A stretch of 64,000 nt of DNA from the NCBI RefSeq assembly GCF_053078305.1, contig NZ_CP166879.1. One strand, written 5' to 3'. The notes below the pieces were generated by a model that saw nothing but the letters and a program-made list of their open reading frames with translations, did no database searches and was not told the origin of the DNA. Made by a program: the position numbers and the translations under genes. This document shows, in pieces, positions 31,576-37,445 of the stretch; position 1 is the stretch's first letter; each line of letters opens with the position of its first letter.

Positions 31576-33216
31576 TCACACCGTAGCGAAACTAACTGGT
31601 TTACCAACTCCGCGAGGTTCTGCCAACACAGATTGTTTGTTCAGACGGAATACGTCCACCGCCTCAGTTAATCGTGCCGCCTGTTCTTCAAGGGACACCG
31701 CCGCTGCTGAGGCCTCTTCTACCAGAGAAGCATTCTGTTGCGTCACCTTATCCATTTCAGAAATCGCCTGGCTAACCTGAGTTATGCCTCTACTTTGCTC
31801 ATCCGAGGCGGCGGCGATTTCCTGCATGATATGTGTGACACTCGCGACGGCATCAACAATAGTGCTCATGGTTTTCCCGGCCGTTGCCACCTCATCCGAT
31901 CCCAGGTCAATTAACCTGACTGATTCACTGATCAAGCCTTCAATCTCTTTCGCCGCCTGGGCGCTGCGGCTTGCGAGTGTCCGTACTTCGCTGGCGACAA
32001 CGGCAAATCCACGCCCTTGCTCACCCGCTCGCGCAGCTTCAACGGCAGCATTCAGTGCCAGAATATTCGTCTGGAAAGCAATACTGTTGATGACGGCGGT
32101 GATCTCAGAAATTTTCTTCGAACTCGTGGAGATAGCGCCCATCGTTTTTACTACACCGGAAACCGTCTGCCCGCCATCGCTGGCTTTAATAGAAGCCTCT
32201 TGCGCCAGTTTACTGGCATAATGCGCGTTATCCGCATTCTGTTTCACCGTCGCAGTGAGTTGCTCCATGCTGGCGGCAGTTTGTTCAATTGCCGCCGCTT
32301 GTTCTTCGGTGCGAGATGAAAGGTCCGCATTGCCAGCGGAAATTTCGCTGGTGCCACGATAAATCTCTTCCGCGCCCTGTCGAACAGTCCCTACTGTCAT
32401 CCCCAGTGAATGCTGCATTTGCTGTAAATGACGACTTAAGCGACCGATTTCATTACGACCCGCCGGTTCATCATTCATCGTCAGATCGCCACTGGCGATT
32501 TTTTCAATCCGTTGTGCGGCATGTTGCAGTGGACGAATGACGATCCGACGTAGCACCATAAATGTTATCAGCGTCATGACCAGGGCAAGCACAAACGCGC
32601 CAATCATAAACATCCCACCCAGGCTGGTGCGCTGATGGGCCAGTTCCGCCAGTTGGTTGGCTCTGGTGCTACGTATCTTAACGGCTTTGTTCAAAATATC
32701 GGTATAAGCATTATCCAGCGTTCGGATCTGCTCACTTTCATGATTGATAATCGCTTCAAACATGCCATTTTTGGCATATTTCATCATAGGTTGCATACCC
32801 GTGATATAAGCCTGGAAGCGTTGATTTAATTCAGTGTCGAGGGCTTCATCAGCAGGTGTTTTCACCGGCCTATTCTGATAAGCACGATAACCTTGCTGCG
32901 ACTGTTTAATCTCCGATTCGGCTTGCGCAATATTTCGCTTCATTGCTTCCATTTCCGCAATACGACTCGCAGCCCCGGCCTGAATCATATTGATCCGGGC
33001 TGAACGCAAAAAATCTGAACTGTTCGCTAACCCGGTCCGAATCTCAATCTCCGCAGTAACATCACGCTGATCGCGATCGGCCTGCCAGAGGAAATAGCCA
33101 GCCAGGGCTGAACTTAATGCGAATAGAACTAAGATACCGCCTAGAATGCAGGCAAATAACGGAACCAACCTGATGTGATGCAAAAAACCTAATCGCTGTG
33201 AGGGAGTTGTATTCAT
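31576..33216 (-). CDS. trg: Methyl-accepting chemotaxis protein III (ribose/galactose sensor)
   Basis: 546-aa ORF; two TM segments, HAMP, conserved MCP signalling region ([28 protein letters not shown]). Confidence 0.93.
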
Positions 33217-33497
33217 TACCGTTGTCTCTCGTCCAGGTTTACTCCTGATAGAAAGTCATCGGCATTTGACGGTAATTACTTACGACTAAAAGCCTCTTTG
33301 CGTCACATTTTTACAACAATTATTGCAGAGAAGATTAATGCTATTGGAATGAAGAGAGTAACGAATGGCTAAACCGAATGACGAAAAATTCTGGAAAACA
33401 GCACGCAATTTCGTGAAGTGATTATTTCGTCCCTAAGGAAACCTCATAGGATGCCTGCGGGTGCCTGAGACTTTCTGTTTTCAGGCTAACCGGGAAT

Positions 33498-33546
33498 CAG
33501 AAAGACGAAGGCCCCGACCGATATTTCTATCAACCGAGGCCAACGA

Positions 33547-33558
<12 letters not shown>
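33498..33558 (-). ncRNA. sokB: SokB antisense RNA (type I antitoxin), approximate
   Basis: Minus-strand promoter: -35 TTGCCG, 17-bp spacer, -10 TAAGAT (plus coords 33588..33593 and 33565..33570); transcript would be antisense to mokB start and end at a hairpin followed by U-rich UUCGUCUUUCUG; ends not mapped. Confidence 0.5.
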
Positions 33559-33754
<196 letters not shown>

Positions 33755-33825
33755 GGGCAAGCGCGGGGATTTTCCCCGCGCATCTGACTAGCAGATTCAT
33801 TTTCTCATGGCACCCCTTTTACACT

Positions 33826-33999
33826 TCAGTTAGTGCATGTTTTTTTCGATGCACTAATAGAACCATCATTACAGACAAATTTGCCGCCTGCCGTACAGTG
33901 TGAGATCCCCCCTTTCGAACCAGAACAGGGTTTGCGCCCGGCATCGGCATAAAAGGAAACAAGCGCTCCCATAAACAAAATAAGTGCCAGTTTTTTCAT
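33826..33999 (-). CDS. ydcA: Small Cys-rich secreted protein YdcA
   Basis: 57-aa ORF MKKLALILFMGALVSFYADAGRKPCSGSKGGISHCTAGGKFVCNDGSISASKKTCTN; SD ggaggtt upstream; missed by ORF track. Confidence 0.8.
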   Translation of the reverse strand: MKKLALILFMGALVSFYADAGRKPCSGSKGGISHCTAGGKFVCNDGSISASKKTCTN

Positions 34000-34193
34000 A
34001 TAACCTCCATGGTTTATCGAATCTTATGTTCGATTTGAACGTTATACGCTGGTTTATTTTGATACCGTTGATGAGATCAAAGATCGGGTGAATTGATTAA
34101 AAATAAGCCAGATGGACGTATGGGCAAGGATTATGGTTTTATTTGTCATACAAATAAATATAATAGGCGCTTCCGATGTAGACCCGTATTCTT

Positions 34194-34234
34194 CGCCTGT
34201 ACCACGGGTCGGTTTTAGTACAGGCGTTTTCTTT
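34194..34234 (+). terminator. Hairpin plus T-tract in ydcA-cybB intergenic region (terminator-like, plus-strand polarity)
   Basis: 9-bp stem cgcctgtac/gtacaggcg with 15-nt loop followed by ttttcttt on plus strand; alternative stem gacccgt/acgggtc. Confidence 0.35.
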
Positions 34235-34243
34235 AAATATCCT

Positions 34244-34774
34244 TCAGGAACGTTTACGCGGCATCATGCGTAGAAGTGTGTTGTCCTTCCAGAAATAGTG
34301 GTGTGCCAGTGCAGCCGCAGCGTGCAAACCGATGACAAAATATCCCAGATTCGCCAGCGTTTCATGCCACGACTTTAAGCTATCTACCCGTTCGAAATTG
34401 GCCTCTGAAGCGTAAGGCATCGTCAAACCAAACGCAAACCACGGGTTGCCTCGGTTATACATCATCACCAAACCAATCACTGGCAGCGCAATAAACAGGA
34501 GATAAATCACCAAATGTCCCAAATGCGCCAGTCCCGTCATCATCGGTTTTGGCTTAGGTATAATCGGCGGGGTTGGGTATTTCAGCCTTAACAAAAGACG
34601 AACGACCATCAGCACGAGAATTGATATGCCGCAGGAAACATGAATCATGTTGATGAGTGGCCGATCGCTACGTGGGAAGAAACCCCGAAACTCCATTGCG
34701 CAATACGCTGCGATAACCAGCAAAAAGACCAGCCAGTGAATGCTGATTTGTAACCTTGAGTATTTATTTTCCAT
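34244..34774 (-). CDS. cybB: Cytochrome b561
   Basis: ORF 34244..34810 trimmed to MENKYSRLQISIHWLVFLL (176 aa); polytopic with conserved His. Confidence 0.9.
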   Translation of the reverse strand: MENKYSRLQISIHWLVFLLVIAAYCAMEFRGFFPRSDRPLINMIHVSCGISILVLMVVRLLLRLKYPTPPIIPKPKPMMTGLAHLGHLVIYLLFIALPVIGLVMMYNRGNPWFAFGLTMPYASEANFERVDSLKSWHETLANLGYFVIGLHAAAALAHHYFWKDNTLLRMMPRKRS

Positions 34775-34962
34775 AACATTTCCTGCTTTAACATAATTTT
34801 CCGTTAACATAACGGGCTTTTCTCAAAATTTCATTAAATATTGTTCACCCGTTTTCAGTACGTTACGTTTCACTGTAAGAATGGAGATTGCCCATCCCGC
34901 CATCCTGGTCTAAGCCTGGAAAGGATCAATTTTCATCCGAACGTTCCTGACAGGAGAAAACC

Positions 34963-35964
34963 ATGAGTAAAGTTGGTATTAACGGTTTTGGTCGTATCGG
35001 TCGACTGGTGTTGCGTCGATTACTTGAAGTCAAAAGCAACATAGACGTTGTCGCTATTAATGATCTCACTTCTCCAAAAATTCTCGCCTACCTGCTGAAA
35101 CATGATTCAAACTACGGACCGTTCCCCTGGAGCGTTGATTTTACGGAAGATTCACTTATCGTTAATGGGAAAAGTATCGCGGTTTACGCCGAAAAAGAGG
35201 CTAAAAATATTCCGTGGAAAGCGAAAGGTGCAGAAATCATTGTCGAATGTACTGGCTTTTATACCTCCGCCGAGAAATCGCAGGCGCATCTCGATGCTGG
35301 CGCGAAGAAGGTGTTGATTTCCGCCCCTGCCGGTGAAATGAAAACTATCGTTTATAACGTCAATGACGACACTCTGGATGGCAACGATACCATTGTTTCC
35401 GTGGCGTCATGCACCACTAACTGCCTTGCGCCGATGGCCAAAGCCTTGCATGACAGTTTCGGGATAGAAGTCGGCACGATGACGACCATTCATGCCTATA
35501 CTGGCACCCAGTCACTGGTGGATGGCCCGCGTGGTAAAGATTTACGTGCTTCACGCGCCGCGGCAGAAAATATCATTCCCCACACTACGGGCGCGGCAAA
35601 AGCCATTGGTCTGGTGATCCCGGAACTGAGCGGCAAACTGAAAGGTCATGCGCAACGCGTGCCGGTGAAAACAGGTTCGGTCACTGAACTGGTATCGATT
35701 CTCGGAAAAAAAGTGACTGCCGAAGAGGTGAATAACGCACTTAAACAAGCAACCACCAATAACGAGTCATTTGGTTATACCGATGAAGAAATAGTCTCTT
35801 CCGATATCATTGGCAGCCATTTCGGTTCGGTGTTTGATGCCACGCAAACGGAAATTACCGCCGTGGGCGATTTACAACTGGTGAAAACGGTCGCCTGGTA
35901 CGATAACGAATATGGCTTCGTCACGCAGCTTATTCGCACCCTCGAAAAATTCGCTAAACTCTGA
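34963..35964 (+). CDS. gapC: Glyceraldehyde-3-phosphate dehydrogenase (intact GapC)
   Basis: 333-aa uninterrupted ORF; NAD-binding [10 protein letters not shown]; active-site [10 protein letters not shown]. Confidence 0.92.
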
Positions 35965-35972
35965 CGCGCACA

Positions 35973-36000
35973 GGCGGAGGAAAAAACCTCCGCCTCTTTC
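35973..36000. terminator. Terminator between convergent gapC and aldA
   Basis: ggcggagg-aaaaaa-cctccgcc hairpin followed by tctttc. Confidence 0.6.
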
Positions 36001-36005
36001 ACTCA

Positions 36006-37445
36006 TTAAGACTGTAAATAAACCACCTGGGTCTGCAGATATTCATGCAGGCCATGTTTACCATCTGCGCCGCCAATACCGGATTTACGCCATCCGGCGT
36101 GGAAGCCTTGCATAGCTTCGAAGTTTTCACGGTTGATGTAAGTTTCACCAAACTTCAGCCCTTTAATGGCTTTCATCGCGACGTTCAGATTTTGGGTATA
36201 GATTGATGAGGTCAGGCCGTAATCACTGTCATTAGCCATTGAGATAGCATCTTCCAGCGTGTCAAATGCGACTACCGGCAGAACCGGGCCAAAGGTTTCC
36301 TCATGCATAATCGACATTTCCTGGCGAACATCCAGCAGCAATGTCGGCGGATAATAATATCCTTTCCCCTCTACCGCTTTGCCACCCAACGCCACTCTCG
36401 CCCCTTCTTCTACTGCGCGCGCCACTTTTTGCTCGACCCTTTCCAGCGCCGCGGCGTTAATCAACGGCCCCATCGCAATGTCGTTGCGTTCAGCGGGGTT
36501 ACCAAATTGAACCGCCTGCATCGCTTCACCCAGCCGATTGACGAACTGATCATAAATGCCTTTCTGTACATAAACACGTTCTGCACAGTTACACACTTGC
36601 CCACTATTAATGACGCGTGAATCAACGATGGCTTTGACTGCCAGTTCAAGATCGGCATCGTCCATTACGATAGCTGGTGCTTTACCCCCCAGTTCCAGGC
36701 ACACTTTGGTGATGTTTTTCGCCGCAGTCGCCATGATCTTCTCACCTGCAGAGACGCTGCCTGTCATACTGACCATTGCGACCTTTGGGTTACCCGCCAG
36801 TTCTTGCCCAACGGTTTCACCACGCCCCAGAACAAGGTTAAACACGCCGCGCGGAAGGCCTATTTCATCGACGATTTTGGCGAATGCAATCGCATTGTTT
36901 GGCGTAAATTCACTGGGTTTAATGACGATGGTATTACCGGTCAAAAGAGCGGGAGCCATTTTGCGGGCAATGAGGAAGAACGGGAAGTTCCACGGCAGAA
37001 TGCCGGTAGTCACACCAAGCGCACGTTTAAACAGAAGAATATTTTCTCCTGGACGATCGCTTTGAATAATCTCGCCCTCGTAACGCCGTGCCCACTCCGC
37101 CATGTAATCGATATAGTCGGCAGTAAAAGCCACTTCGACTTCAGCCAGCTGCTGGATCTTGCCCCCTTCTTCAACAATCAGCGCACTGATTTCACTGGCG
37201 CGTTCGCGGATCCCGGCGGAGATTTTGCGCAACCAACTGGCGCGTTCAATAGCAGGCAACGCTTCCCATTCTGGTTGTGCACGTTCTGCTGCATCGATTG
37301 CCTTACGGGCATCCTCGGCCTGACCATCGGGTATGCGGGAAATGACAGCCTCTGTAGCAGGGTTTACCACATCAATCCATGCGTCTCCACGCCAGGTAAC
37401 AAACTGTCCATCGATATACATAGGATGTTGAACGGGTACTGACAT
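36006..37445 (-). CDS. aldA: Lactaldehyde/glycolaldehyde dehydrogenase (NAD+)
   Basis: 479-aa ORF; ALDH motifs LELGGKAP and GQVCNCAER. Confidence 0.93.
   Translation of the reverse strand: MSVPVQHPMYIDGQFVTWRGDAWIDVVNPATEAVISRIPDGQAEDARKAIDAAERAQPEWEALPAIERASWLRKISAGIRERASEISALIVEEGGKIQQLAEVEVAFTADYIDYMAEWARRYEGEIIQSDRPGENILLFKRALGVTTGILPWNFPFFLIARKMAPALLTGNTIVIKPSEFTPNNAIAFAKIVDEIGLPRGVFNLVLGRGETVGQELAGNPKVAMVSMTGSVSAGEKIMATAAKNITKVCLELGGKAPAIVMDDADLELAVKAIVDSRVINSGQVCNCAERVYVQKGIYDQFVNRLGEAMQAVQFGNPAERNDIAMGPLINAAALERVEQKVARAVEEGARVALGGKAVEGKGYYYPPTLLLDVRQEMSIMHEETFGPVLPVVAFDTLEDAISMANDSDYGLTSSIYTQNLNVAMKAIKGLKFGETYINRENFEAMQGFHAGWRKSGIGGADGKHGLHEYLQTQVVYLQS

Follow-up and report, generated by a model that had tools for sequence, protein, structure and literature searches.

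In the analyzed window, a 64-kb stretch of DNA, the spacer between the minus-strand genes ydcA (33826-33999) and cybB (34244-34774) contains a hairpin. Nine Watson-Crick pairs, formed by CGCCTGTAC (34194-34202) with GTACAGGCG (34218-34226), enclose a loop of 15 nt, and TTTTCTTT (34227-34234, plus strand) lies directly 3' of the stem. An earlier note on this DNA had described a 9-bp stem followed by ttttcttt in plus-strand polarity, with both flanking genes on the minus strand, and the sequence agrees with it on each of these points. The features of the locus are listed in Table 1.

Table 1. Positions in the window of rydC, its structural and control elements, and the convergent gene cybB
Feature	Position	Strand	Basis or remark
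Perfect palindrome ATTTGTCATACAAAT, -29 to -15 of the rydC promoter (candidate YieP operator)	34141-34155	.	Motif match, conservation
Sigma-70 -10 box of rydC, TATAAT	34159-34164	+	Read from sequence; 5 nt before +1 (34170)
rydC gene, RydC sRNA of 64-65 nt	34170-34234	+	Rfam, MG1655 identity, Term-seq 3' ends
Single-stranded 5' seed CUUCCGAUGUA, nt 1-11	34170-34180	+	Target-pairing role from literature
Whole stretch of the earlier note, GACCCGTATTCTTCGCCTGTACCACGGGTCGGTTTTAGTACAGGCGTTTTCTTT	34181-34234	+	Read from sequence
Helix S1, 5' arm GACCCGU, nt 12-18	34181-34187	+	Pairs with 34204-34210; Rfam consensus helix
Loop L1 AUUCUU, nt 19-24 (U23/U24 = 34192-34193)	34188-34193	+	Sequence; Hfq-rim contacts from Salmonella crystal structure
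Helix S2 (terminator stem), 5' arm CGCCUGUAC, nt 25-33	34194-34202	+	Pairs with 34218-34226
Helix S1, 3' arm ACGGGUC, nt 35-41	34204-34210	+	Inside the terminator-hairpin loop
Second loop GGUUUUA, nt 42-48 (U46/U47 = 34215-34216)	34211-34217	+	Second Hfq-rim contact
Helix S2, 3' arm GUACAGGCG, nt 49-57	34218-34226	+	Pairs with 34194-34202
U-rich tail UUUUCUU(U), nt 58-64/65	34227-34234	+	Termination point, Hfq proximal-face ligand
cybB, cytochrome b561 / superoxide oxidase, convergent	34244-34774	-	Stop codon 34244-34246, 9 nt past the RydC 3' end

Canonical intrinsic terminators were defined by a G+C-rich stem, a loop of 3 to 8 nt, and at least 5 U residues within the 8 nt that follow the stem. 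Against this definition, the hairpin has a stem of 9 bp with 6 G-C pairs and a tail in which 7 of 8 residues are U, whereas its loop measures 15 nt. It was not called by a consensus terminator scan because this loop exceeds the 8-nt limit of the scan. A 6-pair alternative at 34195-34209, which appeared in the output of the scan, was rejected as spurious.

The plus-strand RNA of 34170-34236 was folded by a nested method, in which a pseudoknot cannot be represented. Both the minimum free energy (MFE) and the centroid structure corresponded to the 9-bp hairpin, at -14.4 and -13.8 kcal/mol, respectively. The fold energy of this 67-nt stretch was not beyond chance (z = -0.58), with 53 of 200 shuffled sequences folding equally well, so that the hairpin is not validated by energy alone. 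It is set apart from chance by an Rfam match, by compensatory changes in the stem, and by 3' ends mapped in Escherichia coli K-12 MG1655.

Identity and structure of RydC

A search of positions 32000-36500 against Rfam returned RF00505 (RydC RNA) at 34170-34233 on the plus strand. The score was 92.5 bits, compared to a gathering score of 48 (E = 3.7e-18), and the match spanned model positions 1 to 64 of 64. RydC is a known, well-studied Hfq-dependent regulatory RNA of E. coli with a length of 64 to 65 nt. In MG1655, the noncoding RNA gene rydC (b4597) is located at 1491442-1491506(-), between cybB and ydcA; coordinates were converted by subtracting the MG1655 coordinate from 1525676 to give the window position. 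From 34100 to 34260, the window was identical to the reverse complement of MG1655 at 160 of 161 positions, and the sole difference, at 34145, falls outside the RNA. The locus thus shares with K-12 all 65 nt of the RNA, the TATAAT promoter, both pseudoknot helices, the U-tail, and the location in the cybB-ydcA spacer, convergent with cybB; the 3' ends mapped in K-12 fall on the same bases. The RNA shows no difference, and the promoter differs at the single base 34145, which is G here and A in K-12.

The stretch from 33760 to 34300 was 100% identical to E. coli O157:H7 chromosomes, whose PGAP-annotated records carry no feature between cybB and the ydcA homologue. As rydC is unannotated in these records, a reader relying on the annotation of the flanking genes sees an orphan terminator. 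Of 5426 complete E. coli genomes, 5415 carried the gene, each in one copy, and no annotated feature lay under the rydC match among the matches listed. The earlier note had suggested an unannotated plus-strand small RNA within 34000..34235. It was correct as to a plus-strand small RNA, which is the known RydC with a promoter of its own and a start at 34170 rather than 34000. RydC, its pseudoknot, terminator, Hfq complex, targets, and repressor have all been published, and the locus offers nothing new for biology in this respect. The practical value lies in recognizing that automatic NCBI annotation omits rydC in the strains identical to the window, as in most genome records, so that an "orphan" plus-strand terminator is repeatedly rediscovered.

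RydC folds as a pseudoknot with an exposed 5' seed, and disruption of helix 1 results in a half-life of about 2 min (PMC4337610). In the window, helix S1 is formed in DNA letters by GACCCGT (34181-34187) with ACGGGTC (34204-34210), and position 34181, at which the feature of the earlier note began, is its first base. Interlocking of S1 with S2 produces an H-type pseudoknot (nt 12-18/35-41 and 25-33/49-57). Computed separately, S1 is worth -10.5 kcal/mol and S2 -13.8 kcal/mol; for the nascent nt 1-48, S1 is also the MFE fold. The position of the S1 3' arm inside the terminator hairpin accounts for its unusually large "loop". Like the canonical terminators of Hfq-dependent small RNAs, that of RydC combines a G+C-rich stem with a U run that both signals release and binds Hfq at its proximal face. 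It differs from them in that their loop usually has 3 to 8 nt compared with 15 nt in RydC, where 7 loop nucleotides pair with an upstream segment and the stem is one helix of the pseudoknot, not a free hairpin. A functional terminator can therefore escape loop-limited consensus scanners when a pseudoknot helix occupies its loop.

In the Salmonella RydC-Hfq crystal structure, U23/U24 and U46/U47 touch the Hfq rim; the U-rich tail and the hairpin together bring about Rho-independent termination, and the tail binds the Hfq proximal face (PMC4337610). The window sequence has each of these contacts: U23/U24, U46/U47, and the U-tail.

The earlier note had proposed Term-seq as a check on a plus-strand transcript. 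Such data have been published for the identical sequence of MG1655 and place plus-strand (window) ends at 34233 and 34234. They were taken from the curated lists in Supplementary file 1 of Adams et al. 2021 (PMC7815308), which cover three conditions. The 3' end at MG1655 1491443(-), equivalent to window position 34233, was recorded in LB at an OD of 0.4 with 1,254,845 average reads, and that at 1491442(-), equivalent to 34234, in LB at an OD of 2.0 with 2,396,595 reads (PMC7815308). Both were classed as primary for rydC, and both correspond to the last two U residues of the RydC tail. The file has a third entry starting with 149144 (PMC7815308). On either strand, no 3' end was listed from 1491450 to 1491999 (PMC7815308). 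A discrete transcript of about 64 nt that ends in the U-tail is thus supported by published MG1655 ends on identical sequence. It should be noted that the window strain is O157:H7-like and that the transcript data all derive from K-12 or Salmonella; the 3' ends, Hfq contacts, role of the pseudoknot in stability, targets, and repression by YieP have been established in the literature for identical or orthologous sequence.

To compare orthologues, genome contigs were scanned with the pattern CTTCCGATGTNNNNNNNNNTNCTTCGCC, which proved too strict in demanding T at RydC nt 20, and metagenomes with the pattern CTTCCGATGTAGRCCCGTB, built to exclude Escherichia. The genome-contig scan yielded 7 Escherichia loci, from E. 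albertii, E. whittamii, two other Escherichia species, and divergent E. coli lineages, along with 9 chance matches in unrelated phyla, a count close to expectation for a pattern with 18 specified bases. Among the matches of the metagenome scan, 5 were orthologues, falling into two sequence types (L021/L025/L026/L027 and L024), and 4 were due to chance. The resulting alignment comprised 9 distinct sequences representing few independent lineages, 3 of the 9 being from metagenome contigs, and the aligned structure was derived from one of the 9 sequences.

All 16 pairs of S1 and S2 were standard in each of the 9 distinct orthologues (100% of cells). Compensatory double changes were found in 4 of the 9 S2 pairs (G-C/A-U, U-A/C-G, A-U/G-C, and C-G/U-A). 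In a control in which the 3' partners were slid by 1 to 3 columns, 26 to 48% of cells paired and the double changes were nearly all lost. In S1, all 7 pairs were kept in 9/9 sequences, with one A-U/G-U variation and without compensatory change. The S1 5' arm is fixed by the metagenome retrieval pattern, and the comparison is therefore no independent test of this helix. The same limit applies to the seed CUUCCGAUGU: it was invariant in all orthologues, but both retrieval patterns included it. The Rfam consensus gives it in upper case. The second loop varied within Escherichia, reading GGTTTTA or TGGTTTA. Salmonella RydC, rebuilt from the primer table of PMC4337610, would have the S2 variant CGCCUGCGUC/GACGCAGGCG, in agreement with the metagenome type L024 (CGCCTGCGTC/GACGCAGGCG); it was left out of the alignment, one junction base being ambiguous.

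Synteny was conserved as well. By tblastn, cybB was convergent with and just downstream of rydC in 11 of 11 orthologous loci, an arrangement that has been described (PMC11340327), and ydcA was found upstream of rydC only in some Escherichia. The identity, geometry, conservation with covariation, and synteny of rydC are plain from these comparisons. We consider it nearly certain that the hairpin is helix S2 of RydC and that, together with the U-tail, it constitutes the Rho-independent terminator of the transcript initiated at rydC's own promoter.

Variation in the 3' part of the RNA was seen in the Escherichia lineages L005, L010, L011, and L014. Their tail is GCGCTTTCTTC compared with GCGTTTTCTTT, which leaves 3 rather than 4 residues in the first U run, and their second loop is TGGTTTA in place of GGTTTTA. 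The U-tail and the U46/U47 step both contact Hfq, so these lineages may differ in how stable RydC is or how efficiently its transcription terminates.

Promoter of rydC and a candidate YieP operator

The -10 box of rydC is a perfect TATAAT, and no recognizable -35 element lies upstream of it, in line with the published description of this promoter as having no obvious -35 (PMC11340327). A promoter scan that required both hexamers did not call it. The -10 box is abutted by the perfect palindrome listed in Table 1. Its reverse complement, ATTTGTATGACAAAT, fits the YieP motif atTTGTaTGAcaAAT, derived from ChIP-exo (PMC7642389), at 15 of 15 positions. Allowing up to one mismatch, 34141-34155 was the sole match to this motif in the 64-kb window. 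The palindrome was kept upstream of rydC in all of the Escherichia loci and metagenome orthologues retrieved, and the sequence farther upstream diverges.

Base 34145, the single difference from MG1655, lies within the palindrome. The G found here makes the palindrome perfect and the motif match 15/15, compared to 14/15 with the A of K-12; the K-12 mismatch falls on a low-information position of the motif, in the orientation matching the motif centre. Across E. coli, 2253 genomes were identical over 57 nt and 3025 showed 95 to 99% identity, bands too coarse to resolve a single base such as 34145.

YieP, a regulator of the GntR family, represses rydC transcription about 20-fold, and a rydC'-lacZ fusion is regulated by it (PMC11340327). 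According to the same study, no site is known in the promoter of rydC, and one published ChIP-exo regulon does not include the gene (PMC11340327); rydC and ydcA have been picked as candidate YieP targets (PMC7642389). Motif match and conservation suggest that 34141-34155 is probably the YieP operator, binding at this exact site being deduced from the sequence. A repressor bound from -29 to -15 would exclude RNA polymerase. The link between YieP and rydC is known, and the explicit placement of the operator alone may not have been stated before. The only mildly new point of the analysis is where exactly this perfect palindrome with the YieP motif sits on the core promoter of rydC.

In the mechanism that we propose, rydC has its own sigma-70 promoter (TATAAT at 34159-34164, +1 at 34170) and is read rightward from it, with YieP normally holding transcription low. 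In the emerging RNA, nt 12-18 would first pair with nt 35-41 to form S1, and nt 49-57 would next pair with nt 25-33, situated in the S1 loop, to complete the H-type pseudoknot. S2 followed by UUUUCUU(U) would then release RNA polymerase at 34233/34234. This cotranscriptional order, S1 and then S2 with release, is predicted from the geometry and the computed folds. The finished RNA reuses its 3' module, with the U-tail on the Hfq proximal face and the two loop UU steps on the rim. The compact pseudoknot shields RydC from decay and presents the single-stranded seed CUUCCGAUGUA for pairing with target mRNAs, by which cfa is activated and csgD, trpE, pheA, and yejABEF are repressed. The primary work on how RydC activates cfa and on conservation of the pseudoknot is that of Froehlich et al. 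2013 (EMBO J).

Published work on these targets covers both modes of regulation. Translation of csgD is repressed by RydC, which pairs with the initiation region while Hfq assists partial unfolding; RydC regulates yejABEF as well (PMC3985669). Activation of cfa involves stabilization of the mRNA and counteraction of Rho (PMC11340327). Repression of trpE and pheA by RydC is modest (PMC11340327).

Possible read-through from hokB and the opposing cybB transcript

The hairpin could in principle serve a transcript other than RydC or none at all. The earlier note had considered that it could terminate read-through from hokB; hokB/mokB lie on the plus strand, about 430 nt upstream of the hairpin. Some read-through is conceivable, since hokB (33605-33754) is on the same strand and the hairpin right after it (33761-33781) has no U-tract. 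Against this explanation, a conserved TATAAT precedes the RydC 5' end by 5 nt, both the Rfam model and the gene annotated in MG1655 begin at 34170, and the rydC'-lacZ fusion responds to YieP (PMC11340327). In other genera, moreover, rydC retains its promoter and terminator though hokB and ydcA are absent upstream. With a promoter belonging to rydC and no other 3' end listed from 1491450 to 1491999, we regard termination of hokB read-through as the function of the hairpin as very unlikely; any such read-through reaching it would stop there only incidentally. That the hairpin is a functionless product of chance would agree with its fold energy, which is indistinguishable from that of shuffled sequence. 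This explanation was rejected, as it is already refuted by the Rfam match (E = 3.7e-18), the covariation in four compensatory pairs, the very strong mapped 3' ends, and the crystal structure of the orthologous RNA with Hfq, which leave it a practically negligible probability.

The remaining explanation, also raised in the earlier note, is a bidirectional terminator that ends minus-strand cybB transcripts as well. Several features of the locus speak for it. Only 9 nt separate the cybB stop codon from the 3' end of RydC, which means that every complete mRNA of cybB must run into the hairpin, and the convergent arrangement of rydC and cybB is kept across loci. In minus-strand RNA, the stem takes an 11-pair form of -21.4 kcal/mol (z = -2.29), and the consensus scan found no other minus-strand terminator-like site between cybB and ydcA. 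Bidirectional intrinsic terminators likewise consist of one hairpin between convergent units, here 9 nt from the opposing stop codon. They are, however, marked by a U-tract on both strands and by 3' ends of both convergent transcripts, whereas the RydC hairpin has a U-tract on one side only and no listed cybB-strand end beyond it. After the minus-strand stem comes AAGAAUACGGGU, in which 2 of the first 8 nt are U, and the tail (AAGAATAC / AAGAATACGGGT) does not contain the defining U-tract. This tail is the complement of the pyrimidine-rich L1 and so is purine-rich in every orthologue. Under the three Term-seq conditions, in which cybB is poorly represented, no cybB-strand 3' end was listed downstream of the hairpin (1491450-1491999), and the sole cybB-sense end is weak, internal to the open reading frame (ORF), and positioned at 34260, before the hairpin. 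Termination of cybB by this hairpin, weak or condition-specific if it occurs, is thus unlikely in our judgment, and the reading of the hairpin as the terminator of RydC is retained.

The cybB-sense 3' end at MG1655 1491416(+), equivalent to window position 34260 on the minus strand, was recorded with 1,024 reads in LB at an OD of 2.0, and the curated lists contain no cybB 3' end past the stop codon (PMC7815308). This end is internal to cybB, 14 nt upstream of the stop codon, and falls within the loop formed by a small hairpin (34253-34274); RydC's 3' end on the other strand is 26 nt farther on. Processing, or collision with polymerases transcribing rydC, could account for it.

No terminator belonging to cybB precedes the hairpin, so any cybB mRNA extending past its stop codon includes a perfect antisense copy of RydC, 64 nt long. 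We rate it as unlikely that rydC and cybB act on each other, either in cis by polymerase collision or in trans by sponging or cleavage. In the cis version, collision of RNA polymerases might explain the weak end at 34260. In the trans version, the cybB 3' untranslated region could sponge RydC, or RydC could direct cleavage of the cybB mRNA. If true, superoxide-oxidase expression would be coupled to the RydC/cfa membrane response.

Three further observations were made in the neighborhood. On the strand opposite to hokB, the 22-aa ORF yncP (33732-33800, minus strand), annotated both in K-12 and by PGAP, overlaps the hokB 3' end and spans the GC-rich hairpin GCGCGGGGATTTTCCCCGCGC (33761-33781) located 3' of hokB. 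The Rfam model "sok antitoxin" (RF01794) matched 33459-33610 on the plus strand, that of mokB/hokB, with 109.7 bits, and coordinate conversion places MG1655 sokB (1492119-1492175, plus strand) at 33501-33557 on the minus strand of the window. As sokB and the match lie on different strands, RF01794 seems to fit the leader strand of the hok mRNA rather than the antisense RNA. Finally, gapC (34963-35964, plus strand), a pseudogene (b4493) in K-12 MG1655, is an intact ORF of 333 aa in the window, and O157:H7 records name it type I glyceraldehyde-3-phosphate dehydrogenase.
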